A stretch of DNA of 47,960 bases from an uncultured Candidatus Saccharibacteria bacterium (GCA_964355335.1 CAYHDB010000004.1:1-47960), one strand, 5' to 3'. Counted from the stretch's first letter, positions 3,726-47,785 are shown. Notes: a model not told the origin generated them from the letters alone. Numbers and translations are program-made.

Positions 3726-5021
3726 CTATTGAACTTCTCTCCAACCATCAAACACATACCCGCCCGAAGGACCGCCAACAAACAATAGATGCGCGAGTCC
3801 ACTTTCATAACTAATTGTAGAATTATTTTGAGCTGTTATCCTATATGCGGATGCCTCCTTTACCGAAAGATGATTCGATATACCCACCTTACCATGGGGC
3901 GCGTACAAAATAACATCCTGGGTAGCATTGCTTGATGCTTCAATCGCAATGTCTCCCCTTCCTATTTCCGCGGCGTTATTCCGCGACAAAAGCAAAACGT
4001 ATGAATTGGGACTACCGCTAGTCACTTGCGCACCATTTCCCAAAAAGATTTTACTATGATCATCAAGATCTTCCGTATCGTGAGCAATCAAGGCGACACT
4101 TTTGCCGGCAAGCGACGGATCTGTTTTGACAATTGAACCGTTATTTAAATAAATATCTCCAACCACCCATACGTGTCCTCTTAATGTCAATTCATCTTTT
4201 GATTCTACATACAGACTGCATAGGATTTTCCTGGGACCCATAGTTTCCGGTCCAACGACTCGATAAGGACACGGACCATAGTAGGTTCCTCCTGAGGAGG
4301 CTGATGCTTCCCACGCATCTATAAGCTCTTCTGAAATCGGAAAGGAAGTTGTCGCCTGATCAATACTGCCAGGATGAAGAGTCCCATCCACCGACGTACT
4401 GGAAATTGACTGATAATACGCATCTCCATCAATATCCGAACTACTTATAGTATGTGCATAGGCAGTACTCGTCGCATGGATTCCACTAATTAGGCCTAAA
4501 GGTCCTGCGGACACGACAGTCCCCTTAATCAAATTGCCATTTTCTCCTGTTACAGGACCGTTTGAATAAACATTTCCCTTTACAAGAGAACTGTTTTGAA
4601 GGAAAATACCACCGCCACCGGCCTGCAATCCGTAGTAAAATGATGTACCACTGCCGGAAGCCAAATGCGTTTTGATATTTCTTACCAAACCGACAGCATT
4701 GCCCGACGAAGTGAGCTCCAATCCTCCTATGACCGAAGTCGATGTGGCTGTCGCCTTAAAACCATTCAATGTCAGTGTCGAAGGTGACACAAACTTCTTA
4801 TTTGTCTTGTATCGATAGATAGCATCCTCGTTCACAGACTGAGACACGTACAAACTAGCGCGAGTGTTGATAAAATCACTCGCTTGTTTCGCTTGCCGAA
4901 GCACCGGATTCATAATTCCAAAACCCATAATTGCGGAAATTGTCACGAAAAATATAACGGCCAAAATCACAGCCTGCCCACCGCTAGTTTTTAGTTTTAA
5001 GTTTTTAGTTTTTAGTTTCAT
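3726..5021 (-). CDS. PilX-like minor pilin/adhesin with a large beta-rich domain
   Basis: Basic leader followed by G|QAVILAVIFF hydrophobic helix; last gene of the pilin cluster. Confidence 0.7.
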   Translation of the reverse strand: MKLKTKNLKLKTSGGQAVILAVIFFVTISAIMGFGIMNPVLRQAKQASDFINTRASLYVSQSVNEDAIYRYKTNKKFVSPSTLTLNGFKATATSTSVIGGLELTSSGNAVGLVRNIKTHLASGSGTSFYYGLQAGGGGIFLQNSSLVKGNVYSNGPVTGENGNLIKGTVVSAGPLGLISGIHATSTAYAHTISSSDIDGDAYYQSISSTSVDGTLHPGSIDQATTSFPISEELIDAWEASASSGGTYYGPCPYRVVGPETMGPRKILCSLYVESKDELTLRGHVWVVGDIYLNNGSIVKTDPSLAGKSVALIAHDTEDLDDHSKIFLGNGAQVTSGSPNSYVLLLSRNNAAEIGRGDIAIEASSNATQDVILYAPHGKVGISNHLSVKEASAYRITAQNNSTISYESGLAHLLFVGGPSGGYVFDGWREVQ

Positions 5022-5638: not shown

Positions 5639-6163
5639 TTAATTGCTAAACAAATTCGTCATATATGTCGAAAGAGTTCTACTCGTGGTCGTCGCACCGT
5701 TCTGCCAAGACACAACGACGGTGACCTTTTTTGTGCCAGTATCTAAGGTGCCACTTGATGCGATATTGTCATTTGAATCTCTGCTTACATTCTCAAAAGT
5801 TGCATATCTTGTATAAAAAGAATCGATTTTCGAAGCAGTGGCGGAAGTCGTCCATCTTGTACCGTCCCAATTAAAATAATATTTTGTTGAGCCGTTTAAT
5901 CCGGAAATATTGGAGGTCCAGCCGTAATCTCGCAAAATGCTTGCCGTCTCTATACCCTCCTCCAGAAGATACGTCGCTTGTATATTGTTCAAGGTATTCA
6001 TACCCACTTTCACAAACATACTGTATGCCGTGAGAAGTCCCGTAACAGCAAGCAAAAGGAGTGCCGAACCAATGACAACTTCGATGATGGAAACACCTGA
6101 AGAAGTTTTTAGCTTTGAGCTTTGAGCTTTTAGTTTTATTGAAATTCCTGATTCTTTATTCAT
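5639..6163 (-). CDS. Prepilin-type protein (PilV-like)
   Basis: SG|VSIIEVVIGSALL class III signal; C-terminal KKVTVVVSW. Confidence 0.85.
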   Translation of the reverse strand: MNKESGISIKLKAQSSKLKTSSGVSIIEVVIGSALLLLAVTGLLTAYSMFVKVGMNTLNNIQATYLLEEGIETASILRDYGWTSNISGLNGSTKYYFNWDGTRWTTSATASKIDSFYTRYATFENVSRDSNDNIASSGTLDTGTKKVTVVVSWQNGATTTSRTLSTYMTNLFSN

Positions 6164-9882: not shown

Positions 9883-10536
9883 CTAGTAAATAGGAGTAAA
9901 ATCTTTAAAATTTGAATTTGTCATAAAACCTCGAACGTAGGTATTTCTTTTTGTTTGTTCCAAGCAATTCAAGTCAATCGACTGCGGTATTTTACCTTTA
10001 TTTTTGATAAAAATTTCGATGATTCTCATAATAAAATCGTGCGCAATTATAAGCTTGGTATCATCAATAGAGAATATATCATCAAAAAATCTCTTAATCC
10101 GGTCAAAAGTGCTGACGTAAAATTCAGCGTCTTCCCCAGACACCATGCCCCGAAATACTGCACTGTTCACAGCCGCAATACCATCGCCTCCTTTAAACAA
10201 TTTTGCCAAATCAAAACTTATTTCGTCCAATTCTGAAAACTTTTTGACCGGGGGCCGAACACCTGTCACCTTCTCAATCTCATTCTGAAAAATAAGGGCA
10301 GTTTCCCCTGTGCGCGGAATCGTGCTCGTGTATATTACCTTAGACAAAAGTATTTCTGGAAAATTGGAAATTAATTTTTTGACCAGTATCGTCGAATATT
10401 CCATATCTATAGGAGGGTTAAGCTTCCTGTCTCCCAAACCCGAAAGCACTGAAATCGGCATCTCACTGTGATCCTTGAAAGGAAGAGATAGCTTTCCGTG
10501 CCTAACTATAAAATATCTTGATAAATTTTTATTCAT
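9883..10536 (-). CDS. Histidine phosphatase (phosphoglycerate mutase-like) family protein
   Basis: FIVRHG, TS..PRTGETA, ELDEI and LIIAH motifs. Confidence 0.8.
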   Translation of the reverse strand: MNKNLSRYFIVRHGKLSLPFKDHSEMPISVLSGLGDRKLNPPIDMEYSTILVKKLISNFPEILLSKVIYTSTIPRTGETALIFQNEIEKVTGVRPPVKKFSELDEISFDLAKLFKGGDGIAAVNSAVFRGMVSGEDAEFYVSTFDRIKRFFDDIFSIDDTKLIIAHDFIMRIIEIFIKNKGKIPQSIDLNCLEQTKRNTYVRGFMTNSNFKDFTPIY

Positions 10537-10608: not shown

Positions 10609-13089
10609 TCACTTGGAAATGATTGTTATCTTGCCCGAAGCCCCGTCAACTCTCACCCGCATTCCCGTTTTAAGCACGTGGGTAGCTCTCGGGACATTAA
10701 GTACCGCCGCAAAGCCGATTTCCCGAGCATAGATGGCTCCATGCGCAAGTAATCCTCCCACTTCGGTAACAAGCCCTCCTTTCGCCCCTACTATTGCGAG
10801 TGCCGGTGCCCAAGCTGGATCGGTCTGTTCTGTAACAAGAATTGACCCAGGCTTAAGCATTTTAATGGTCACTGTATCTGCTAAACTCCTGACAATAACC
10901 ACTTCTCCCGTAACCGAGGCGTTCGTAACACCAATACCCTTCAGAACACTCGCGGTGTTAAAAAAAGCATCAGCTGTTCCAATGTGTCGCAACTCTGCCG
11001 CAAACGAAACTGGCGGTACGTAAACGTCCCTATGGAGTCTCCGCATTTCCTCTCTTCCGTCTGCTCTCCGTCGAAGAATACCTGCCTTGGTGGTAAGATG
11101 CCCGACCTCTTCCGGTTTAAGGTAAAAGATTCGACCCTCATCCCAACCAAGCTTGCGTTCGATGACTACAGCAAGTTCCCGAAGGAGTGCATAGCCTCGG
11201 AGATATTCGAATTTTACCTCTTCTCTAAGACCCAAGTATGTCTGAGCCATGGATAGCAGGTCGCTCAAACCCTGCAAGTGCTTCCGCCCCGGTCTAAACA
11301 ACCTAGCAAGAAGCATTACACGCTCGTCTTCTTTCGAAGAAAGGTCGTGTTCGGGTGATTCCGTGATTCCCTCGGAAAGTTGGCGAAGTGTTTCCGGTTG
11401 ATTGGCAAAACGAGGCGTTGAAATTTCCAATTCATGTTGGGCAAGATGCCCGTAGCGTTCACAAACCTCTTCGAGAGTAACAGTTCCCTGTTTCAAATTA
11501 AAGAGGTCTGCCGTGAACTGCAGATTTGGATTTGTCTTCCGCGCCGATCCGCCAGTTAATACATTGAGGAATTGATCCGCCTTTTTTCCGTGATGTTTCT
11601 TTATCATCTTTCGCGCTTGCGCGTAAGAGAAGAAGCCGAGCCGAGCTGCCTTCACGAAGATCCTACAAGCACGGGTTCGAAGCAACTCACAAATCGCCAT
11701 GTACTGCGAAGTGAGTTCCGCAAGTGATCCATTGCCTAGTGAATGTTTAGCTTTTGAGATCGCAGCGGTCCATTCCGGAAGAAACTTGCTTCGATACTCA
11801 TCTTCCGTTGTGGTCGCTGCATTCAAAAGCTTTTGTTCAAAGACTTGGTACGCTTTGTGAAAGCATTTGCCCTTTCGAACTCCGAAGAGATCTGAAAGGA
11901 AGCGCCGTGTTGGGTTCTGGTTGTACAGAACCACCTCTGGATAATTGGCAAGACTCCTGTCTGCTCGAACTCTTGCAAGGTAGTGATTCACCAACTTGCA
12001 ATAATCGAGAAGCGGAATACCTGCTATCCTGTAAGTAAAAGCATCGTGAATTATGCTTGAACGTGGCTGCCCTCCTATGAGGGCGAAAAAACCACAATCC
12101 AACTCATCCCCGATCTCATACCCGAGCTCATTTCGAGCCATACGTATTGCTCCATTCCCATGGGCAAAACAATACGTGAATAATCCAAACCCCATTGTCG
12201 TAGGAAAGGACGTCAGAAGTTCGACAATGTTTTGGTCCGTGAACACGTCCTCAGCGAGTCTGCAACCAAGCGTGACAAGACGTTTTTTCTCCCTGCCAAC
12301 CTCTGCGACGGTTTCTTTGATAGAACGTTGAACTTTCGGAGAGAGCTTCTTGTCATTCAATTGGCCCAGTGTGTCAGAACGGCTTTTCCGACCCTGATTA
12401 ATAAACAACAAGCCGGTAGTGCACTCGAACGCCCATTCAATATCATTCACCCCGAGGTTCTTGTTAAGCAGCTTGGCAGTTTGGACAAGCTCCTTGATCT
12501 GCTTGGGACTCAAGTCAACACCACCTTTTCCCTCAACCCTTTTCACCAGTCCGGTTTTCTTATACACGTACCAGCGCCTCGGCTCTTCCTGCCCGGAAAC
12601 CAGTTTGTCTGCAGTACCGGTCGTGGCCTCAATGACCATGCATTCCTTGTCACCGTTTGCGGGATTATCAGTAAAGATAACCCCTGCGACAGACGCATCA
12701 ACCATCTCCTGCACAAAAAGGGCTAACCGTGGTTCTCGTGCGTGATGGACTTTCCGGTATGACTGCGCTACCGTGCTTTTTACAGCTTGGGCGCATTCAA
12801 TTACTGCGGCACCGAGGTCTTTTCGAGCGACAAACAGCTTGCTTACAAACTGCCCCGCCCACGACAACTCGCCGTCTTCGTCAACTGCGGAACTGCGAAC
12901 AGCAAAACCTACGCGGTTGTCGTCAAGAGAGCTAGTAGAATTCAACAACCCTGCTGGCAGCCTGCCAGTTCGATTGATAAAATCTACCCTTTCTACTTCT
13001 AACGAAACAAAGGGTTTAACGTTTGCCAACTTTCTGATGCGAAACAACATTACTGCTTTTCGCCCGTTATGTTTAACTGAGAGTTTCAT
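10609..13089 (-). CDS. PEP-utiliser/PPDK-type kinase: N-terminal ATP-grasp, central substrate domain, C-terminal phosphohistidine swivel (rifampin phosphotransferase / L-glutamine kinase architecture)
   Basis: AVRSSAVDEDG..SWAGQF, VQEMV...AGVIFT, DIEWA and C-terminal TDPAW...GGLLAHGAIYAREIG..AV. Confidence 0.85.
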   Translation of the reverse strand: MKLSVKHNGRKAVMLFRIRKLANVKPFVSLEVERVDFINRTGRLPAGLLNSTSSLDDNRVGFAVRSSAVDEDGELSWAGQFVSKLFVARKDLGAAVIECAQAVKSTVAQSYRKVHHAREPRLALFVQEMVDASVAGVIFTDNPANGDKECMVIEATTGTADKLVSGQEEPRRWYVYKKTGLVKRVEGKGGVDLSPKQIKELVQTAKLLNKNLGVNDIEWAFECTTGLLFINQGRKSRSDTLGQLNDKKLSPKVQRSIKETVAEVGREKKRLVTLGCRLAEDVFTDQNIVELLTSFPTTMGFGLFTYCFAHGNGAIRMARNELGYEIGDELDCGFFALIGGQPRSSIIHDAFTYRIAGIPLLDYCKLVNHYLARVRADRSLANYPEVVLYNQNPTRRFLSDLFGVRKGKCFHKAYQVFEQKLLNAATTTEDEYRSKFLPEWTAAISKAKHSLGNGSLAELTSQYMAICELLRTRACRIFVKAARLGFFSYAQARKMIKKHHGKKADQFLNVLTGGSARKTNPNLQFTADLFNLKQGTVTLEEVCERYGHLAQHELEISTPRFANQPETLRQLSEGITESPEHDLSSKEDERVMLLARLFRPGRKHLQGLSDLLSMAQTYLGLREEVKFEYLRGYALLRELAVVIERKLGWDEGRIFYLKPEEVGHLTTKAGILRRRADGREEMRRLHRDVYVPPVSFAAELRHIGTADAFFNTASVLKGIGVTNASVTGEVVIVRSLADTVTIKMLKPGSILVTEQTDPAWAPALAIVGAKGGLVTEVGGLLAHGAIYAREIGFAAVLNVPRATHVLKTGMRVRVDGASGKITIISK

Positions 13090-13166: not shown

Positions 13167-13796
13167 TCAACTAAGATCGACGCAGTTACCCAGGTAATCA
13201 ATAAGGTCACAAGAGTACCTAGTCCGTCGTACTTGTGCGTCAACCCTACCAAATAAACAAGCAATCACCCAAGAAGCACTCGTTCCGGTACATTTGCAAA
13301 TATACTTTATGAGTGATCTGTGTGCGTCAACATCAGAAGCTTCCCGTGCAACCGGGCAATCAGTGGGTTTCTCCCTATATCTTTGCTCCAGGTAACCAAG
13401 CGTGCAGAGCATTTTTGATTTGCATTCAGGAAAAAGCCTTTGTAGGGTTTCAGAAACGCTTTCATCCATTGCTAAGATAATCGAGGATTCTTCGATATCT
13501 GTACTACTCACTTCCTGTGCCAACCGATCTGTGGGCATAACAACTCCACACTCACTAAGAACAGGTTTAATTGTTAACCACAAAGCCGGAAAGTCTTTCA
13601 CCAGACTTTTCCCGGCACACCCAGTTAATCCCCGAGAGATACAGGTTGCCGACCTTGGCACCCTGTACAACTGCAAAGGTTCGTATGAAGCAGTGCGTTT
13701 TATTCTTAGTGTTTCATTGAGGCATGTTTCTGCAATAACTGAACGGTAAACGTTGTCTGCACAAACGATGAGAATTTGATTTTTCATAACAATCAT
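13167..13796 (-). CDS. Low-molecular-weight protein Tyr/Arg phosphatase or ArsC-like protein
   Basis: N-terminal ILIVCADNVYRSVIAE (CX5R P-loop), SRGL and IILAMD. Confidence 0.75.
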   Translation of the reverse strand: MIVMKNQILIVCADNVYRSVIAETCLNETLRIKRTASYEPLQLYRVPRSATCISRGLTGCAGKSLVKDFPALWLTIKPVLSECGVVMPTDRLAQEVSSTDIEESSIILAMDESVSETLQRLFPECKSKMLCTLGYLEQRYREKPTDCPVAREASDVDAHRSLIKYICKCTGTSASWVIACLFGRVDAQVRRTRYSCDLIDYLGNCVDLS

Positions 13797-14000: not shown

Positions 14001-14279
14001 TTATTTGACTTTATAATTCTTCAAAACCTTCCAAAATCCACCTTTATCGTTCAATAATTCTCTGGAACCGCGAGTAATCTTGGCAATACTGACTCCTAAA
14101 TTACCGGCTATTTCTCTTTGAGGTACCCTCTTCGAGAGCAACTTGATGATTTGCCAGCGAATACTGATATCCTCAAACTCCGTCGGAGTAAGCAGATCCT
14201 CAAGGAACTCATCCATCAGCTTTGGATTCCTGATAGATACCAACAGCTTCATTAATTCCTCTCGATATTTCTTATCCAT
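14001..14279 (-). CDS. trpR: Trp repressor (TrpR/YerC-YecD family) HTH regulator
   Basis: FLEDLLTPTE...RWQIIKLL...PQREIA.NLGVSIAKITRGSREL matches the TrpR signature. Confidence 0.88.
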   Translation of the reverse strand: MDKKYREELMKLLVSIRNPKLMDEFLEDLLTPTEFEDISIRWQIIKLLSKRVPQREIAGNLGVSIAKITRGSRELLNDKGGFWKVLKNYKVK

Positions 14280-14369: not shown

Positions 14370-14400
14370 AAATAAAAGACGCTCTGTGATAGAGCGTCTT
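14370..14400 (-). terminator. Intrinsic terminator after the zinc-ribbon ORFs
   Basis: AAGACGCTCT-gtgat-AGAGCGTCTT with an adjacent minus-strand U-tract. Confidence 0.8.
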
Positions 14401-14417: not shown

Positions 14418-14588
14418 TTAATACGTCACAGTGCGAACAATCTCATGTCTCATCCCGAAGTCTTCCGCCTTGTAAGGTGGCATAAGCAACCAATTACACT
14501 TAGGACAAAGGGCGGGTGATGTAACTTTCGGAAACACAATCCTGCTACACTGCCAGCACCAGTAGCATCTCCGTCTTGGATTTTTCAT
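14418..14588 (-). CDS. Small zinc-ribbon-like protein (56 aa, MKNPRRRCYWCWQC...LCPKC)
   Basis: Two CxxC pairs; GAGGGA SD upstream of ATG 14588; followed by a terminator. Confidence 0.6.
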   Translation of the reverse strand: MKNPRRRCYWCWQCSRIVFPKVTSPALCPKCNWLLMPPYKAEDFGMRHEIVRTVTY

Positions 14589-14607: not shown

Positions 14608-14811
14608 TCACGCACTCCAGGCCGAACGGCGAGGTTTGGTGCGTGTCGGTGCAGTGCCGAAACCAGCGGGACGGCTTGGCTCAGACAGAACCGCACTGAT
14701 AGGTAACTCTTCAAGAACAGTATTGCACTTTGCGCAGTGGATGTTCCGGCCGATTTGTTTTGTTGTGACATCGGCCAAACAGCGAACGCAGTATTTAGTT
14801 GGTGTATTCAT
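14608..14811 (-). CDS. Small zinc-ribbon-like protein (67 aa, YCVRC...HCAKC)
   Basis: Two CxxC pairs; first ORF after the T-box terminator. Confidence 0.6.
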   Translation of the reverse strand: MNTPTKYCVRCLADVTTKQIGRNIHCAKCNTVLEELPISAVLSEPSRPAGFGTAPTRTKPRRSAWSA

Positions 14812-14854
14812 TTTAAGGAACTATTTTTTGAGAACGATTTTTGTTTTTGAAACG

Positions 14855-15175
14855 AAAAATCCCATCCCCAATGTCCCGACATAATGTCGAGACGCTAAGG
14901 ACGAGATTTGTTTCCCGTGGTGCCACCTTGCTTGTCCGCCTAAGTTTTGTTCTCACAAAAATTTTGGCGTGCTTCTCATCAGCTCATGCTCCTTGCGGAA
15001 GATACTGATTATCTCTGTTACGGGAGAACCCGGGCCTGCACACGAGCTATACCTTTCGGTCGCTCAAGCACAGACCATCCTGTCATCTGTTTTCACAAAC
15101 GACTTATCTAGCCCCAACCCCAGCCACCTTTCGGCAACCAGGAACTAGACATGGATGTTGTAACTGTCAACCTGA
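14855..15175 (-). ncRNA. T-box riboswitch (transcriptional) with an atypical 5' domain
   Basis: T-box AAGG-UGGCACC-ACG (14929-14916) pairs with CGUCCUU (14903-14897); a competing long terminator with U-run spans 14909-14855; stem III-like hairpin upstream; F-box-like CCCGUAAC (15024-15017). Confidence 0.8.
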
Positions 15176-15179
15176 TATT

Positions 15180-15207
15180 AGGTTACCAGACCCCCAAAAT
15201 TTGTCAA
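15180..15207 (-). promoter_or_regulatory. Sigma70-type promoter for the T-box leader
   Basis: TTGACA-N16-TAACCT with an extended TG. Confidence 0.6.
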
Positions 15208-40024: not shown

Positions 40025-40351
40025 TTACAGTTTCAACATCTTCCTAATCTCCTGCCCCACTGACTTGATTTCATTTGCCGAGAGAAAACCGATTCTCTTT
40101 TCCAGTCTTTTAGCGTCAATGGCTCTCAACTGAAAAATCATAGCTATTGAGATGGAGGATAAGTTGTTTGAAACGGTTGGTTGAAACTGAATTGTATGTG
40201 CAAATCGCAACGCTTTAACGTTAGAGGTAAAAGGAACAACCACAACAACGTTAGCAACGACACCGGAAACGACAACTGCCGGCCGTATTCCCGACTGTTC
40301 ATGCCCATTTGAATCTCCAGAGTTAATTATCCAAATCTCACCCTTCTTCAT
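40025..40351 (-). CDS. PemK/MazF family toxin
   Basis: KKGEIW, GHEQSGIRPAVVVS, VVPFTS and QLRAID..RL..RIG. Confidence 0.92.
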   Translation of the reverse strand: MKKGEIWIINSGDSNGHEQSGIRPAVVVSGVVANVVVVVPFTSNVKALRFAHTIQFQPTVSNNLSSISIAMIFQLRAIDAKRLEKRIGFLSANEIKSVGQEIRKMLKL

Positions 40352-40607: not shown

Positions 40608-43600
40608 CTAAAAGTTCTGGAACTTCGGACGGCTGTCGTTTGTAAAGAGTTTGACGGTAGCGTCGTGACTCCTTCCTGCGACATCCGGACTAGCGTGAAC
40701 CGTGATTGTATATCCGTCAGCGGATACCGGTATGAAATTATCCGCCTTAATCACCATATCAAGTCCGTCCTTATACTCGTTCTTTTTAAGAACCGCGGTT
40801 GAACCTTGAGAAACTCCATTCTTATAAAACGTATAGAAAAGACTGGCATTAAACTCTTCAAACCTACCCGGGGCTGCGGTTATGGTTATATCCTTATCGA
40901 ACCATGTCATATCGTCAATTGTGATATGTACTTTATTCGACGAAGCCACGTTACCGACAAAGCTCATCGTCGCGGTCGGGCTGGCGATTATCTTGTAGTC
41001 ATCGTTGGAATTGTAAACAAGTACTTCGCAATTCGCAGTCACAGTTCTAGGGTCCGGTAATGTGGAGGAGTCAGTCACTGTGATAGTTCCGCTTTTAAAA
41101 CCTGGAACGTCCTTTGCAGGGTCATATGGCACTTTGGTTGTAAACGGCTTTGTCGGGTCAAAAGGTAAATACGGCTTACTATCAACCTGCCAGGCATAGT
41201 AATAATCAGGGGTGCCGGTATTGTTGGTTGAAGCCGTAAGTGTCAACGACTTCTTTCCATCAAGACCAGTCAAAACTTTTGAAACAGTACAAGAAACCGA
41301 CAGAGGTGTGCCTTGTGGTGGCGTCACAGTTTCCGGCCCTCCACAAACCACTGTTGTCGTTTTTGAGTCAGACACTAGAGTTGAATCAATTACTTTCACC
41401 GTCGCAACTTTTCTGTTTCTCTGAGTCACATTTGGATCATATGTTACAGATACAGATTTATCCGACAGAGAGGAAGCAGTACCTTGCATACCGTCACCGC
41501 TCCACAAATATGTAAATGGCGAAACTCCATCATTTACAGTCGCGGTCCATACGACTGTTTGAGCAGTAGCAAGATTGGCCAGATCCATAGGACTTGGGGA
41601 TGCAGAACAAGAAACAGAAGGTGGTATAGGTGGAGGAATAGGGGGAGCACAATTCGGAGGACAATTTGATGTGGCCGTAGATGGAGGTGGTGGAGCAAAG
41701 CGTATCGTCGTGCTTTCGGAACAATTGTTATATTCACCAATATGAGGAATGACGGTGGAATCGGAGGCATCGGAAACCTGAGTCTCATCAATCGCTCCGT
41801 GATAAGGCGCGTCATTTGGCGGAAAGTCTACACAATAACGGATTTTGTATGTTTCATTTGCTCCAACTTGCGAAGTCCGAGTTATTCCTACAGCGGTAGG
41901 CAGTTCCAACCTAGTACCAAGTCCTCCCGCCACCGTTGCAAAATTGGGGAAATCAACATAACTTTCATCAGACTCCGTCTCTCCCTTATGTTGGAACTTA
42001 ATATTGAACGGCCCGGCATTACCCCCTCCGACATTTTTAGGTATTGCTCTGAGCGTAATTATTTCCCCTGACCTGAAACTGTTATCCGAATTTCTTAGTC
42101 CATCAACTATTGGCGGAATTGTCGGCATCAAGTCCGGCTTTGGTGCCGGGTCCACTTTCACACTCACCTCACAAGATTTAGTTTCGACGGCATTTGATGA
42201 AGTCAGTCTATAACCATACTCGCCTATCGAGGAGACATCCCTGTATTTAATCTCTTCCACGCCCTGACGTGCATTGCCTGTAATGACACTGCCTCCTTCC
42301 GCTCTGCCCAACACAACCTTAAACAATTGCGCTGACGTCGCACTACCGGCAAACCACTGTATTTCAACTCCACTACCGAGATATGTGTTGGCTGTTTTGC
42401 CGTACACACCACCAAGAGGACGAATACTTATAACACACTCTGGTTTCTCAGTTTGTGTCGGGCGATTCACGTTTACCGTCACAGTATCGACAAGATTCCC
42501 GCAAGTGACTTTGTATGAGTAAGGGCTTCTACTATTCAGAAGTGGTCCGGCAGATTCATCTGTGCCGATTTTCTCGATAGACGCGGGAGTTTTCCAATCT
42601 GTCACGCACGAGGAAGTGCCATCGTAAGACCATTTCAAATCAACACGGTCTCCATCATTTACTGTCAGAGTCTCGTGAGAATATGGGTCAACGCCAGCTT
42701 TGCGAACTTGCAACAATAATTTTGCCGTCGGGGGTGGTGGAGGTGGCTTCGGTTTTAATCTTATAGTCGTGTTGCCCGAACAGTTGTTGTACTCCCCTAC
42801 ACGGTTCGTCTTGTCCACATTGTCATTTATATTTGTATAAGCACTTTGCTTCTCCACCACATTTCCCATGTAATCATTCGGTGGCATGTCCACGCAATAT
42901 CGGAAATCCCATACTTGCTCGCCAGTGACAGAAGCACTGATACTGTGAGTAGACGACGGTCTTTTCTCTGTCGGAACTTCCTTGCCACTAGTCAAAAGTG
43001 AAGCGACATCTGCAGAAACATCTCCGATACTCGATAAATCTTGGAATAAATCCTGAGACTGAGTGCTCAATTTTGCCTGGAACTTCACTCTGAAGGCCGT
43101 ACTTCCGACATCCCCGGGGCCGGCATTTTTCGGTTGAGCTTTGAGAGTGAGAGTTGTGCCGGGAATATAATATGTAACATTTGGCGTGACGGAAGTGTCG
43201 GTCCAAGTCGAACCTGACGGTCCGGAAATATCCGGGGTGTCGTTCGGCATAAGGTCGGGATGTGTTTCTACAGGAGGAGGCGTGACCACCGTCACATCCA
43301 CCGTATCTGTAACCTTTGTTCCTGCGGGGTCCGCAATATTCCAACACTCGATTGTGAATGAACGTCCAGCGGACAACAGGTCGGTCAAAGCGTCACCACT
43401 TAACGGCAAACTATTTTTGAACTCGCCCGACGCTGAATCGGCTTTCGGCTGACAAACAATGTTTCCACTATTTGTTCCAGTCGATTGGCCACCCGCCCCG
43501 CCCGTCACACTCTCTCCATTACCGGTGCCTGGAGAAGATATCTCGCCAATCGAACCAGTACGATTTTCCATAAACGGAATAGAACTGAAAGGCGTCAGTT

Positions 43601-43910
43601 GAAGTTGCTTTGTTCCTGTACTGTCAAAAATTGCATACTGATACTCTACTCCTGCGGTCAATCCACGGTCCGCAAGTGGAAGCGATTCCATAAATCCCTT
43701 CGCCACCTGAATCCAATTATTATCCTGTCCAGTCGCCCTCTTCAACATATATGTCACTCCCGCCTCCCCTCCCTCGTACTTCATAAGCAACTCCGTCTCT
43801 GAACTAGGTCGCACTCCAGCCACCACCCGTACATCGGCAAAAACAGACACAGCATTAAAGCAGAAAATCATAAGCCAGACGGAAATAATAATTTTTATTT
43901 TTTTACTCAT
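40608..43910 (-). CDS. Large secreted/surface protein with Ig-like (CARDB/PKD-like) repeats
   Basis: Signal peptide; Ser/Thr/Pro-rich; internal duplication PDLMP...PKN.G...F..KFQ...RYCVD.PPND...GEYNNCS..TTIR. Confidence 0.8.
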   Translation of the reverse strand: MSKKIKIIISVWLMIFCFNAVSVFADVRVVAGVRPSSETELLMKYEGGEAGVTYMLKRATGQDNNWIQVAKGFMESLPLADRGLTAGVEYQYAIFDSTGTKQLQLTPFSSIPFMENRTGSIGEISSPGTGNGESVTGGAGGQSTGTNSGNIVCQPKADSASGEFKNSLPLSGDALTDLLSAGRSFTIECWNIADPAGTKVTDTVDVTVVTPPPVETHPDLMPNDTPDISGPSGSTWTDTSVTPNVTYYIPGTTLTLKAQPKNAGPGDVGSTAFRVKFQAKLSTQSQDLFQDLSSIGDVSADVASLLTSGKEVPTEKRPSSTHSISASVTGEQVWDFRYCVDMPPNDYMGNVVEKQSAYTNINDNVDKTNRVGEYNNCSGNTTIRLKPKPPPPPPTAKLLLQVRKAGVDPYSHETLTVNDGDRVDLKWSYDGTSSCVTDWKTPASIEKIGTDESAGPLLNSRSPYSYKVTCGNLVDTVTVNVNRPTQTEKPECVISIRPLGGVYGKTANTYLGSGVEIQWFAGSATSAQLFKVVLGRAEGGSVITGNARQGVEEIKYRDVSSIGEYGYRLTSSNAVETKSCEVSVKVDPAPKPDLMPTIPPIVDGLRNSDNSFRSGEIITLRAIPKNVGGGNAGPFNIKFQHKGETESDESYVDFPNFATVAGGLGTRLELPTAVGITRTSQVGANETYKIRYCVDFPPNDAPYHGAIDETQVSDASDSTVIPHIGEYNNCSESTTIRFAPPPPSTATSNCPPNCAPPIPPPIPPSVSCSASPSPMDLANLATAQTVVWTATVNDGVSPFTYLWSGDGMQGTASSLSDKSVSVTYDPNVTQRNRKVATVKVIDSTLVSDSKTTTVVCGGPETVTPPQGTPLSVSCTVSKVLTGLDGKKSLTLTASTNNTGTPDYYYAWQVDSKPYLPFDPTKPFTTKVPYDPAKDVPGFKSGTITVTDSSTLPDPRTVTANCEVLVYNSNDDYKIIASPTATMSFVGNVASSNKVHITIDDMTWFDKDITITAAPGRFEEFNASLFYTFYKNGVSQGSTAVLKKNEYKDGLDMVIKADNFIPVSADGYTITVHASPDVAGRSHDATVKLFTNDSRPKFQNF

Positions 43911-43960
43911 ACGAATTGCGAATATCATCGAAAACAAAAAGTGACGCCTTTATCAAAATC

Positions 43961-46900
43961 CTATATCGGTATGTTGGCTGACGCGGATACGGGGATGTCA
44001 GGCTCGGCAACACGAAATACTCCACTGGATATTGTCGAACATCGGGAAGCGGAGGTGTCCGGACCAACACAGGAAAGCTCTAGGAAATAATTACCGGGAC
44101 GCAAACCCTGCGGAACTCCCCACGATTCGCTTCCGTCATTTGGTGTCGTAACGCCCTGCACAAGCTGACTAGTGAACAAAGTGGTAATGCTCCTGCTCTT
44201 CCTGAGCGACAAACGTATAGGTACATCATTCGGCAACAAATTACTCGTCCACCTTACAGTCATAAGTGTTCCTGCTTTGAAAACCTCTCCCTCCTTTGGA
44301 GCAATGATAAACGGTTCTTTGACTTGCACCGCGCGTTCAAACCCGATTATCTCCGGTGGTGCCTCTGGTTGGGGTGTTATTGGAACAATCGTTATGTTAG
44401 GCTGAGTCTTCCTTTCGGGAGGTAATGTATTACCCAAACGAGTATTCATTCTATCAATCTCCAAAGTAAGACTGCTCGTCTGTGACTCCGCACACTTCTC
44501 ACTCAAGCTTCCGAGCGAATTGGCCTTGTTGGCCCCAACCAACAATTCCTGCTCATTTTTAGGCACCACATACTCTACCCCGGCCTCCAAGGCTAGCTCA
44601 GGGGAATTGAAATGGAGGGAATATAAGTAGAATGACCTTCGGATAAACGACTTGAGACGAATGCGGTCTTCGTTCGGGACGTCAAAAGGAAATCGGTCAA
44701 CCGAAAGTAGTATCTTGTAAAGCTGTTTTTCATCTCCGAACATTTCGAGCCCAATTCTGCGATATGCCTGTAAATACTCTTTTCGTGCCTCCGGCAAAAG
44801 CTTATTGATATCGCTTCTCACTGCAGGTAGCCCGGGAGCATTACAGGTAAATGAAAAGTCATGGTCGTAGGAAATAGTAGTCCATTCGCCCGAAGCAGTC
44901 TGAGCATAATCCTCATTCCAAAACATAAAGTGGTCATAAAGATTCACAAAATCGGCAAGGATTCTATAACGAATAGCTGTTTCCTTTTCGAAAGAAATAT
45001 TTTTAGTTGCCCCATCTTTGGTGAACTTTAAATATGAAAGACGGTCTCCCTCCTTCCCCACAGACCAATACTGTTCCGATGCCAGCGCCTCGATGATCGG
45101 TAGTCTCAAATTAAACTGCTCAGTAAAAGGAATATCATCATCCTGTTCAGCCGTCCTCTGCAACATCATATATGGGTAAGACTTTGACTGGTCGAACGTG
45201 TTATCTGCGGATACAAACTTAAAGTTGGCAAAGCCCAACACATCGGGTGTCGGAATCCACGGTCGGAAAGTATCATAAACTACGAACTCCCGAAGAAGCA
45301 CGCTCGGAGCTTCAGGTGGCACAAGTGGCACAGGTTTCCTGTTTTTCAGGACTTCACAATCTGGCACAATGCGAATCTTCTGATAAAGAAGCTCGGTATA
45401 ATTTCTGTAAGTCGATCTGCCGTTAAAAAGGGGACGATCCTTTTCAAACGAAAGGTTGAGAACCGGCGGAATGCAGGTAGCACGGCTACGACTCTTCTTC
45501 TCGTACTTTATTCTCCAGGCCATACCTCGTGCCGACTCAAGAAGTTCCGGCTTCTTGTTCCCACTCAATTTTTCCACGTCCGCATCCAATGAATTACCTT
45601 TTGAATTTAAAATAAATGAGCGAATAGGTAATCTGGGGTCAGCTGGAATAACTCCTCTGTTTTTCAGATCCAACAAATAACTATCGTACCCATCTACAAC
45701 ACCGTCACCGTCCACATCGCCCGACTGTGTCACTTGTACTGATTTTCGCACCACTCCGGAACCTGAAGAAACAATAGTCGGCTGGACGGGTGCTCCCCCT
45801 TCATAATCTTCAGTGCGGATTTCCACAGAAGCGGTCCCAATAATTTTCCCGGAAGCATCCTTGCAGGAAATTGTGTAAATCGTCGAAGGAAAACGTGGTG
45901 TAACCTCAGTGGCACCGATACCAGCATCATTTATCCCGATTGTATCCCGCGCCCAGTTGCCGGTACATGTGGTGGCAGTCGTTGGGATTGTCCACGACAG
46001 CGTGACATTTTCTCCAAGTTCTATTGATAGCGGACCATCTGAGGTGTTGGCTTTTAAGTCAACCGACGAAGAGGTGTTCGAAGAAGATACCAAGCCAATT
46101 TTCAAAGACACTGGCATGGGTTGTCCGTCATACCAATTAACACCCATCGCGGGTGGTGTATCGCGCTCAAATATCACCTTATCACGAATAGCAGGCTTGG
46201 TCTGCGCGGATTGTTGCTTGGTGGACAATACATCAATAACAGAAGCAAGGAGACGATTGGGAGATACTGCGGAAGCAAGTACTACTGGTTTCACTATACT
46301 AAGACCAGCACACTCCGAAAAATATTCTGGTCCTGTTCCACCCTTGATCGCGGCAATAATATATCCACAACTCACCGCATTAAATCGTCTTGGGCGACCT
46401 AAATAACCCATAAGACTAAGCGGATGCGGGCGATAAACAGGCGTATGTGGTGTATCACTATTTGTCGTCACCTCTTTACCCGCCTTATATGCCTGCATAA
46501 GAGGGTCATCGGCGGGCAAGTTGATGATTCCTCCTGAATGGTTACATCCTTTTGTGTTGACGTTAGGTTTGTAACCGTACAACTTCCCTTCGTACATGAA
46601 ATCAGATAGTGGTGCGAATGAACAATTTTTGGATGCATTCACCGAATCAAAATCTGGAATGCCTCCCCCTCCATCCTCATCCAACAAATCCGCAAAGAGA
46701 TGACCAAACTCATGTATAACGGTGTCAACTCCCGCATTGGAACGCACCATAGTATTTCTACCTTTGGGAGACGCGATTCCATTAATTTCTAAGCCCCCTA
46801 GAAGCGTCTTCACATTAGCGTAGAGTATGTAGTTGTAAGTGGTATAGGCATAATCCCCTTTATGCAGTCTACATGAGGAATCAGAACGAATCCTATCCAT

Positions 46901-47785
46901 GTATTGCGAGGGAGCGGTGGATGAGGCGATTCCCTCAAGATAGTACGAGTCGTCATGATTCAAGAGGTCAACAATATGAGAAAAATACCCTCCCGGATGC
47001 TTGTCCACGCCCGGTTCGCTGTACTTCATAAAAGGGTCAATTTCTTCAAAGGCTTCAGTTCTAACCTTTTCCGCTCTGCCTGATACAAGCGCAGGGACAT
47101 CAAGCCCCGCGCTCTCGCCACGTCCATATACCACTTTATGCTCCCCGCTCCCCCATAACGGCGCACAAAGTCCAAATGTCGTTTCTTTCTCCTCCTTTTC
47201 AATTGTACCGCTACCACGCTTGACTCCGTCCACCGAAATCTTCACGGATTTTTTGTCATGAATGGCATTGATGAGCGTTTCGATTTTGATCGAATCGACA
47301 ATACCGTTCGGCCAGCCTTTAAGTTTCCATTCGTAAATGATTCGTCCGGTGGTGTCTCTACGAGTGCTTTGAGTCAAGATACCGGAATCAACAATGACTT
47401 GACTATCCGCCAAGATAGAAACCTTGAACGGAAGTGTTTTCGATGGTTCCTTTCCAAACTTCTCTGGTGTATCGGTATAACATGAACTAAAAATCGGAAC
47501 GGTCTCGACCGCTAAATCGTACATCGGGGTGACTGGCAAATCAGGAGTAAACCTTTCCATTTTCATTTTGTCGTTGAACTCTGGATCAACTATCACCCTA
47601 AGAGAATCCATTTCAACTCCAGATGGATATTGAAAGGTTCCTTTTGCCTGTACGTTTGTTTTACAATCCGCCGCCGTGCCATAAAGGACAGTACTGCTCT
47701 GAGCAAAAAGAACTTGTGGTGCGACGCAAAAAGTCACGAAGAGAGACAGTCCGAAAATTATATTTTTATACTTTTTTATCGTCAT
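43961..47785 (-). CDS. Large secreted modular protein: zincin metalloprotease (M64-like), Ig-like, dockerin/EF-hand-like and possible kinase-like domains
   Basis: Signal peptide; VIHEFGHLFADLLDE; SLM Met-turn-like; GDVDGDGVVDGYD; C-terminal Ig-like PNDGSESW domain. Confidence 0.75.
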   Translation of the reverse strand: MTIKKYKNIIFGLSLFVTFCVAPQVLFAQSSTVLYGTAADCKTNVQAKGTFQYPSGVEMDSLRVIVDPEFNDKMKMERFTPDLPVTPMYDLAVETVPIFSSCYTDTPEKFGKEPSKTLPFKVSILADSQVIVDSGILTQSTRRDTTGRIIYEWKLKGWPNGIVDSIKIETLINAIHDKKSVKISVDGVKRGSGTIEKEEKETTFGLCAPLWGSGEHKVVYGRGESAGLDVPALVSGRAEKVRTEAFEEIDPFMKYSEPGVDKHPGGYFSHIVDLLNHDDSYYLEGIASSTAPSQYMDRIRSDSSCRLHKGDYAYTTYNYILYANVKTLLGGLEINGIASPKGRNTMVRSNAGVDTVIHEFGHLFADLLDEDGGGGIPDFDSVNASKNCSFAPLSDFMYEGKLYGYKPNVNTKGCNHSGGIINLPADDPLMQAYKAGKEVTTNSDTPHTPVYRPHPLSLMGYLGRPRRFNAVSCGYIIAAIKGGTGPEYFSECAGLSIVKPVVLASAVSPNRLLASVIDVLSTKQQSAQTKPAIRDKVIFERDTPPAMGVNWYDGQPMPVSLKIGLVSSSNTSSSVDLKANTSDGPLSIELGENVTLSWTIPTTATTCTGNWARDTIGINDAGIGATEVTPRFPSTIYTISCKDASGKIIGTASVEIRTEDYEGGAPVQPTIVSSGSGVVRKSVQVTQSGDVDGDGVVDGYDSYLLDLKNRGVIPADPRLPIRSFILNSKGNSLDADVEKLSGNKKPELLESARGMAWRIKYEKKSRSRATCIPPVLNLSFEKDRPLFNGRSTYRNYTELLYQKIRIVPDCEVLKNRKPVPLVPPEAPSVLLREFVVYDTFRPWIPTPDVLGFANFKFVSADNTFDQSKSYPYMMLQRTAEQDDDIPFTEQFNLRLPIIEALASEQYWSVGKEGDRLSYLKFTKDGATKNISFEKETAIRYRILADFVNLYDHFMFWNEDYAQTASGEWTTISYDHDFSFTCNAPGLPAVRSDINKLLPEARKEYLQAYRRIGLEMFGDEKQLYKILLSVDRFPFDVPNEDRIRLKSFIRRSFYLYSLHFNSPELALEAGVEYVVPKNEQELLVGANKANSLGSLSEKCAESQTSSLTLEIDRMNTRLGNTLPPERKTQPNITIVPITPQPEAPPEIIGFERAVQVKEPFIIAPKEGEVFKAGTLMTVRWTSNLLPNDVPIRLSLRKSRSITTLFTSQLVQGVTTPNDGSESWGVPQGLRPGNYFLELSCVGPDTSASRCSTISSGVFRVAEPDIPVSASANIPI

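Follow-up and report, generated by a model that had tools for sequence, protein, structure and literature searches.

The window analysed here, a stretch of 47,960 nucleotides from an uncultured Candidatus Saccharibacteria bacterium, carries on its minus strand, from about 15175 to 14850, an RNA leader that is very probably a tryptophan-specific T-box acting by transcription attenuation, with a reduced variant of the tRNA-decoding domain. It is placed among the T-boxes because the core is present, namely the T-box sequence, its bulge, two competing helices, the Stem IIA/F-box element and Stem III. The likeliest form is a Trp T-box that acts on transcription and has neither a K-turn nor an elbow platform, given the link between codon and downstream genes, the match to a G73 discriminator and the competing terminator. 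An earlier note on this DNA had proposed a T-box with a non-canonical 5′ domain. All the motifs it named, without giving a strand, were found on the minus strand, the three-way junction it drew was reproduced in the MFE fold, and its view of the 5′ domain held, since that domain has no platform, no AGUA/GAA S-turn and, in this genus, no K-turn.

The T-box core and the expression platform

At gathering scores, no Rfam family matched anywhere in the window. When the thresholds were relaxed, the T-box model RF00230 aligned with positions 14894-15095(-) at 28.8 bits (E 2.8e-4), far short of its gathering score of 93 bits. The alignment took in a Stem II-like hairpin, the F-box/IIA hairpin, Stem III, the T-box sequence and the antiterminator, that is, the 3′ half only, and 85 model positions of Stem I were skipped; the Rfam search that the earlier note had suggested as a check thus recovered the 3′ half of a T-box, below the cut-off and without Stem I. 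The MFE fold of 14850-15180(-) had an energy of -126.8 kcal/mol (z = -6.19), which none of 100 shuffles equalled, and consisted of the three-way junction followed by Stem II, Stem IIA, a linker hairpin, Stem III and a long 3′ helix. The features of the locus are as follows, with the source of each in brackets where there is one.

15202-15207, minus strand: TTGACA, possible -35 box (read from the sequence)
15153-15157, minus strand: P1 5′ strand, CAUCC, closing the three-way junction (MFE fold)
15105-15151, minus strand: hairpin A, most likely a truncated Stem I, with a lower helix of 8 bp, an upper helix of 11 bp and a GAAA cap at 15129-15132 (MFE fold)
15113-15117, minus strand: putative specifier bulge UUGGG, with codon UGG at 15114-15116 and the next purine, G, at 15113 (fold, alignment)
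15082-15103, minus strand: hairpin B, GUCGUUUGU-GAAA-ACAGAUGAC, third arm of the junction (MFE fold)
15076-15080, minus strand: P1 3′ strand, GGAUG (MFE fold)
15034-15075, minus strand: Stem II, with top UGC 15068-15070 / GUG 15039-15041 and an extension capped by GAAA at 15054-15057 (MFE fold, RNAalifold)
15012-15032, minus strand: Stem IIA (CGGG/CCCG), with the F-box-like CCCGUAAC at 15017-15024 and AGAGA at 15012-15016 (Rfam alignment)
14978-15009, minus strand: linker hairpin with a GCAA cap at 14993-14996 (MFE fold; hairpin at the same place in relatives by eye)
14934-14972, minus strand: Stem III (Rfam alignment and MFE fold)
14894-14931, minus strand: antiterminator, with the T-box sequence AAGGUGGCACCACGGG at 14914-14929 (Rfam alignment; fold of -9.8 kcal/mol)
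14922-14925, minus strand: UGGC within the 7-nt antiterminator bulge (Rfam alignment and fold)
14850-14909, minus strand: intrinsic terminator, stem 14857-14909 (15 + 9 pairs), then UUUUUCGUUU (fold)
14608-14811, minus strand: first presumably regulated ORF, P0001, 67 aa, a CxxC...CxxC zinc ribbon with the C-terminal tail ...TRTKPRRSAWSA
14418-14588, minus strand: second presumably regulated ORF, P0002, 56 aa, a cysteine-rich zinc ribbon
14376-14400, minus strand: terminator-like hairpin closing the two-ORF unit

The consensus of the conserved T-box sequence is AGGGUGGNACCGCG; the leader's AAGGUGGCACCACG at 14916-14929 was aligned to the RF00230 model with high posterior probability. CGGG-UUCU-CCCG together with GUAAC fitted the Stem IIA/B element of RF00230, and Stem IIA was invariant among the relatives; AGAGA could pair with the IIA loop to form the IIB pseudoknot.

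The terminator folded at -32.6 kcal/mol (z = -8.0), none of 200 shuffles folding as well, so that the antiterminator is much weaker than the 24-pair helix that competes with it. The two are mutually exclusive, since the terminator overlaps the 3′ strand of the antiterminator over the common stretch AAAUCUCGUCCUUAG. A U tract follows the terminator and the first start codon, at 14811, lies about 40 nt further on, with no ribosome-binding site inside the competing helix, which therefore looks like a terminator and not like an RBS sequestrator. The same observations tell against a translational switch of the Actinobacteria-like sequestrator/antisequestrator kind; short Stem I forms are indeed known from translational T-boxes, according to the available part of PMC7583486, and even so we give this alternative a very small likelihood.

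The possible -35 box, TTGACA, recurs at a similar distance in the relatives. Candidates for the -10 box are TAACCT at 15180-15185 (16 nt spacing) and TAATAT at 15175-15180 (21 nt), the choice being uncertain. As a sigma-70 scan reported no minus-strand promoter site upstream of the leader, the promoter is one that we infer from these boxes, and the 5′ end of the leader would lie at about 15170-15175.

Relatives of the leader

The relatives were drawn from five sources: BLAST against the six further genomes of the genus; a scan of one genome per species for the exact IIA/F-box pattern, which gave 25 loci (11 in Patescibacteria-labelled MAGs and 14 in Clostridia-type genomes with an ordinary Stem I); a pattern of short Stem II plus IIA, which gave 8 genome loci and 22 in metagenome contigs; a covariance model, R1; and 80 weak RF00230 matches from a phylum sample. 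Five of the six other genomes of the genus contained the element, and it was not found in G001 (89% complete).

Hairpin A and its putative specifier bulge

Hairpin A, whose tip is the GCC-GAAA-GGU motif, is most likely a truncated Stem I, modelled with the specifier in a 5-nt bulge directly between its two helices. Its 5′ strand runs unbroken from the lower into the upper helix, and on the 3′ strand there is only the Y-NNN-G of the bulge; from the sequence, the UGG in it is predicted to pair with the anticodon CCA. Neither the model alignment nor the fold revealed in hairpin A the AG bulge and distal loop of a tRNA-elbow platform, and the AGUA/GAA S-turn motif was not found in hairpin A of the window or of the relatives parsed. 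Among the relatives the upper helix ranges from 6 to 11 bp and the cap from 3 to 17 nt, with no conserved motif, which leaves room for neither a platform nor a conserved GNRA cap. The emphasis that had been laid on GNRA-capped hairpins was accordingly not supported, the second hairpin being missing altogether in several relatives.

A parser for the arrangement of lower helix, upper helix, loop and 5-nt bulge accepted 15 of 16 relatives as against 1 of 3200 shuffles, the sole miss being L020, where a U-C mismatch adjoins the bulge. RNAalifold, run on nine sequences, predicted hairpin A with its bulge as well as Stem II and Stem IIA. In pair counts over nine sequences, 95.1% of cells were paired, compared with 29-54% when partners were slid, and 14 pairs had changed on both sides, compared with 3-7 after sliding (shuffles reaching it, 0 of 500). 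The covariance model from relatives that had been called for was built as R1; across the 36 sequences aligned to it the pairs of hairpin A were kept in 94.8%, with 21 two-sided changes and again 0 of 500 shuffles, figures that overstate independence because the alignment was fitted to R1 and its rows are kin. MAFFT alignment A1, in which the 5′ strands were misplaced, was left out of the counts. Altogether, compensatory changes were seen in three helices.

The codon in the bulge and the genes downstream

Among the 36 aligned Patescibacteria leaders, the bulge triplet was UGG in 29, UCG in five and UCA in one, with gaps only in the remaining one; the preceding base was U, C or A and the following base always G. 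The codon classes found in the bulge were thus Trp and Ser only, UCG to UCA being a synonymous change. UGG leaders stand upstream of anthranilate synthase component I (trpE) in L029, L133, L127, L141 and L125 and before trpG-like and trpD-like genes in L117. Within the window's own genus, the leader of G005 is followed by a 67-aa zinc ribbon, an 89-aa zinc ribbon and then trpB (TIGR00263, 434 bits against a cut-off of 392). The UCG leaders L020 (= L122) and L021 and the UCA leader L116 precede SerA-like D-2-hydroxyacid dehydrogenases, that of L116 also having an ACT domain and so the SerA architecture, and the other serine-type leaders, L033a, L024b and L134, precede small ORFs. The specifier therefore matches the genes in a variant form, by way of the relatives' genes, and because many of the sequences are kin the link rests on few independent events. 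Other genes found directly behind leaders of relatives encode a PPDK_N protein (L025, L136, L126), an LMWPc protein (L128) and a GCS2-type ligase (L129).

These data bear on the possibility that the T-box senses a G73 acceptor end only, or reads the anticodon without a codon, with the 5′ hairpins as a scaffold. Such a reading would suit a window without S-turn, platform or K-turn, in which the Rfam alignment passes over Stem I. It does not account for a bulge triplet that is conserved, that switches with the downstream pathway (UGG with trp, UCG/UCA with SerA-like genes) and around which the flanking helices vary freely, and we consider it improbable. For the same reason the suggestion of a different anticodon readout or none, made in the earlier note, gives way to a conserved 5-nt bulge carrying a codon that tracks the downstream genes.

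On each of three contigs (L024, L033 and L116) a serine-type and a tryptophan-type leader were observed within about 2 kb of one another, with the coordinates 4273-4365 and 6115-6209 in L024, 4037-4165 and 6168-6297 in L033, and 5880-5976 and 7491-7584 in L116.

The acceptor end of tRNA-Trp

ARAGORN identified 42 tRNA genes in the window's genome (G000). Its tRNA-Trp(CCA) ends in ...CAGCUCCC-G-CCA, so the discriminator is G73 and the UGGC of the antiterminator bulge is matched by it; the expectation that UGGC calls for a tRNA with G73 was in this way borne out within the same genome. The tRNA-Trp of G005 and G006 likewise has G73. Several leaders of relatives carry UGGU, which would need a G-U wobble with G73, a combination that was seen in G006 (UGGU with G73); the tRNA-Trp of G004 was looked for and not found, and the UGGU/discriminator match was thus checked in G006 only.

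In the window's genome tRNA-Ser and tRNA-Gln also have G73, and the leader could on that ground answer to another G73 tRNA (Ser, Gln, Asp or Asn) with its specifier elsewhere, for example the GAA in the loop of hairpin B, a GAA followed by A being present in two loops. Hairpin B and its loop, however, lack conservation, several relatives having neither, tRNA-Glu has A73, and the leader of G005, from the same genus, heads a trpB operon; this alternative is accordingly most unlikely. The GAA of hairpin B as a Glu specifier was ruled out, the hairpin not being conserved and tRNA-Glu having A73.

The junction, the K-turn and Stem II across lineages

P1 was also present in the folds of L007, L006, L136 and L034 with different sequence (CGCUG/CAGCG in L034, for example), and is less well supported because RNAalifold did not recover it. 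Hairpin B is lineage-specific: relatives of the window's type have it with other sequence and it is absent in L020, L021, L024 and L109. No K-turn was found at the base of hairpin A in the window, where CAUCC-A-UGUCUAG... lacks tandem G-A. By eye, the base of hairpin A in L020, L021, L024, L033 and L109 resembles a K-turn (C-helix, three bases, GA ... GA, C-helix). Such a base, with no hairpin B except in L033, indicates a normal Stem I that has been truncated above the specifier, and the description of Stem I as replaced does not hold, the first hairpin being a truncated Stem I set on a normal K-turn in those five leaders. Watson-Crick pairs take the place of the G-A pairs in L028, L034, L128 and the genus of the window, so that P1 and hairpin B form a plain three-way junction. 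An extra hairpin was seen by eye beside the 3′ GA in L033 and L117.

Wang and Lilley are said to have described, in 2014, the k-junction, a K-turn with a third helix inserted. To judge by eye, L033, with its hairpin between Stem I and the 3′ GA, and L117, with a hairpin after that GA, resemble it; the window differs in having Watson-Crick pairs at the tandem G-A site and hence, presumably, a plain junction.

The extension of Stem II is lineage-specific. At its top, G-U and C-G occurred in 35 of the 35 rows with letters and U-G in 28. Alignment A4 shows the top to be class-specific beside this invariant tandem G-U/C-G, reading UGC/GUG in Trp leaders and UGC/GUA in serine leaders; on the tentative reading of the domain given below, this part of Stem II could therefore be in contact with the codon-anticodon helix.

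The presumably regulated ORFs and their neighbourhood

No Pfam family was found for P0001 or P0002, each of which contains CxxC...CxxC motifs, and in the ESM Atlas P0001 matched only unnamed small zinc-ribbon clusters. P0002 and a 150-aa ORF behind the leader of G004 have PPY..EDFG.R in common. The tail of P0001, G-F/W-x...R-T/K-K-x-R...G/A-W, recurs in G005, G006, L024 and L033 in the ORF that comes first after the Trp leader; it could serve in recognition or as a peptide signal. Nothing known links the two ORFs regulated in the window with tryptophan, which counts against the Trp reading.

First ORFs with a basic, near-terminal-Trp tail were noted at 14608-14811(-) of the window, L008:1592-1795, L016:322-618, L024:6427-6630 and L033:6486-6686; the tails in these five lineages include ...TRTKPRRSAWSA, ...RKRSRSTGW, ...TRTKRKGTGWS and ...DRTKRRGQSGW.

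Just downstream of the two-ORF unit lies a TrpR-family gene, 14001-14279(-), with 77.7 bits to PF01371 and 63.9 bits to TIGR01321 (cut-off 67.25), followed by an LMWPc-like gene and a gene for an 826-aa PPDK_N/PEP-utilizers protein; all three probably form a unit separate from the two ORFs. TrpR-family matches were present in four of the five congeners searched, with three copies in G001. That the small proteins might bind their TrpR-family neighbour as an 'anti-TrpR' was considered and set aside: a terminator separates the units, G006 (100% complete) has a P0001-like ORF behind its leader yet no TrpR-family match, and G001 has three TrpR-family matches without a leader.

Near the leader in the window, 10609-13089(-), 13167-13796(-) and 9883-10536(-) are PPDK_N, LMWPc-like and His_Phos_1-like genes, respectively, which may represent a tryptophan-linked pathway. 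For the 826-aa PPDK_N protein, the best NCBIfam rows, all below cut-off, were PEP synthase, RedH/PigC ligases and rifamycin phosphotransferase. PPDK_N and LMWPc genes were also observed directly behind Trp leaders in L025, L136, L126 and L128. Elsewhere in the window, a PemK/MazF-type toxin-domain gene at 40025-40351(-) adjoins two large ORFs, 40608-43937(-) and 43961-47785(-), of 1109 and 1274 aa, for which Pfam gave nothing at E <= 1e-5.

The window's genome (92.6% complete) gave no match for trpE or trpB, and trpS is present in it. That a sensor of tRNA-Trp is nonetheless wired to two zinc-ribbon ORFs points to a starvation response. Together with the low Rfam score and with regulated genes that have no assigned function, the missing trpE and trpB would also be expected of a decaying, non-functional T-box relic in a reduced genome. 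A relic would hardly have been kept in five of six congeners with compensatory changes in three helices, or have left T-box sequence, IIA element and terminator intact, and it has in our view scarcely any probability.

Proposed mechanism and comparison with known T-boxes

As a transcriptional Trp T-box, the leader would work as follows. The anticodon CCA of uncharged tRNA-Trp would pair with UGG 15114-15116 in the bulge of the truncated Stem I, without an S-turn, and Stem II and IIA/B would probably help to hold the anticodon arm, as in T-boxes with a short Stem I. The free 3′ end of the tRNA, GCCA, would pair with UGGC 14922-14925 in the antiterminator bulge; the weak antiterminator would thereby be stabilised against the stronger terminator and RNA polymerase would read into the two zinc-ribbon ORFs. 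Charged tRNA-Trp would be unable to pair in this manner, and transcription would end at about 14850-14857. In this scheme the binding of tRNA is putative, and so are the parts assigned to hairpin B, the linker hairpin and Stem II and any function of the regulated proteins. Display of a codon by a 5-nt bulge between two helices is likewise a predicted mode, and this counts against the proposal.

In common with canonical transcriptional T-boxes (RF00230; Bacillus subtilis tyrS and glyQS), the leader has a UGGN bulge matched to the discriminator, competition between antiterminator and terminator, Stem IIA with an F-box, Stem III, and a codon followed by a purine on the 3′ side of Stem I. Unlike them, it has no AG bulge/distal loop and no AGUA/GAA S-turn, its specifier lies in a pure 5-nt bulge, a three-way junction stands at the place of the K-turn in the window, and Stem II has the conserved UGC/GUG top instead of a GAA/AGUA motif. 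The decoding domain thus departs from the canonical form in platform, S-turn, K-turn (in the window) and Rfam threshold. Zhang's review (PMC7583486) states that transcriptional T-boxes generally need a long Stem I with an elbow-binding motif for fast tRNA capture, a generalisation that counts against a transcriptional reading of a leader without an elbow platform.

Sherwood and colleagues reportedly described, in 2015, translational T-boxes with an intermediate or ultrashort Stem I in Actinobacteria. The leader resembles the T-boxes of that phylum in having a Stem I without elbow platform, for which Stem II and IIA/B are expected to compensate. It differs from them in its intrinsic terminator in place of an RBS sequestrator, in its host, a Patescibacterium, and in carrying the specifier in a bulge below a variable helix instead of in a terminal loop; T-boxes of the terminal-loop form are also present in the window's genome (L001, L003). 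In the available parts of PMC7583486 and PMC11297988, intermediate and ultrashort Stem I forms are those of translational T-boxes of Actinobacteria, such as Mycobacterium tuberculosis ileS. The short-Stem-I model of TBDB was applied to Actinobacteria, and the available part of its description makes no mention of candidate phyla (PMC7778990).

We found no description of a T-box in Patescibacteria, Saccharibacteria (TM7), Parcubacteria, Microgenomates, Gracilibacteria or CPR, or of this form of Stem I, in the open-access literature, to which the search was confined; within that scope, a terminator-type T-box that lacks the elbow platform and carries its specifier in a bulge is a reduced form so far undescribed. 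Without platform or S-turn, and in the genus without K-turn, it offers a test of the minimal RNA for anticodon reading.

A further idea, which we put forward tentatively and think rather unlikely, is that the domain is a distinct decoding module and not a trimmed copy of Stem I. The codon would be flipped out of the 5-nt bulge between stacked or kinked helices and read together with the short Stem II, with no elbow contact; where trpE and trpB were not found, the module would drive zinc-ribbon proteins with a basic ...GW tail as effectors of tryptophan starvation, anti-TRAP-like in logic. If true, a transcriptional T-box would work without contact to the tRNA elbow. As judged from the available part of bioRxiv 10.1101/2023.06.29.547145, the leader of Bacillus subtilis rtpA (anti-TRAP) similarly has a Trp T-box antiterminator, which there precedes a tiny zinc-binding protein. 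The two resemble each other in logic alone; no TRAP is known here, and the TrpR-family genes do not co-occur with the small protein.

Distribution of T-boxes in the phylum

Model R1 gave no match in any of the 150 other genomes of a class sample or the 150 of a phylum sample, in searches that used a coarse pre-filter with about 22 candidates scored per genome. L109 (G131), with 32 bits in cmsearch, escaped these searches, and given this and the coarse scoring, close relatives are to be taken as rare, not absent. RF00230 matched 54 of the 151 genomes of the phylum sample at E <= 0.01 and five of the 151 above the gathering score, which means that standard annotation misses most T-boxes of the phylum. 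T-boxes of the sample lay mostly upstream of aminoacyl-tRNA synthetase genes, and many showed a form with a short K-turn and a terminal loop.

Two further sub-threshold T-boxes, of 46.1 and 22.1 bits, were observed in the window's genome, both with an ultrashort Stem I and the codon in the terminal loop. The one at C33:3633-3823(-) (= L001:1501-1691) has the loop UGACA (GAC-A) and UGGC and lies upstream of a class I/II aminotransferase gene; that at C37:6504-6634(-) (= L003:1501-1631) has the loop CUACCAA (ACC-A) and UGGA and lies upstream of thrS, the tRNA-Thr having U73. Stem I of these T-boxes is a K-turn or short hairpin.
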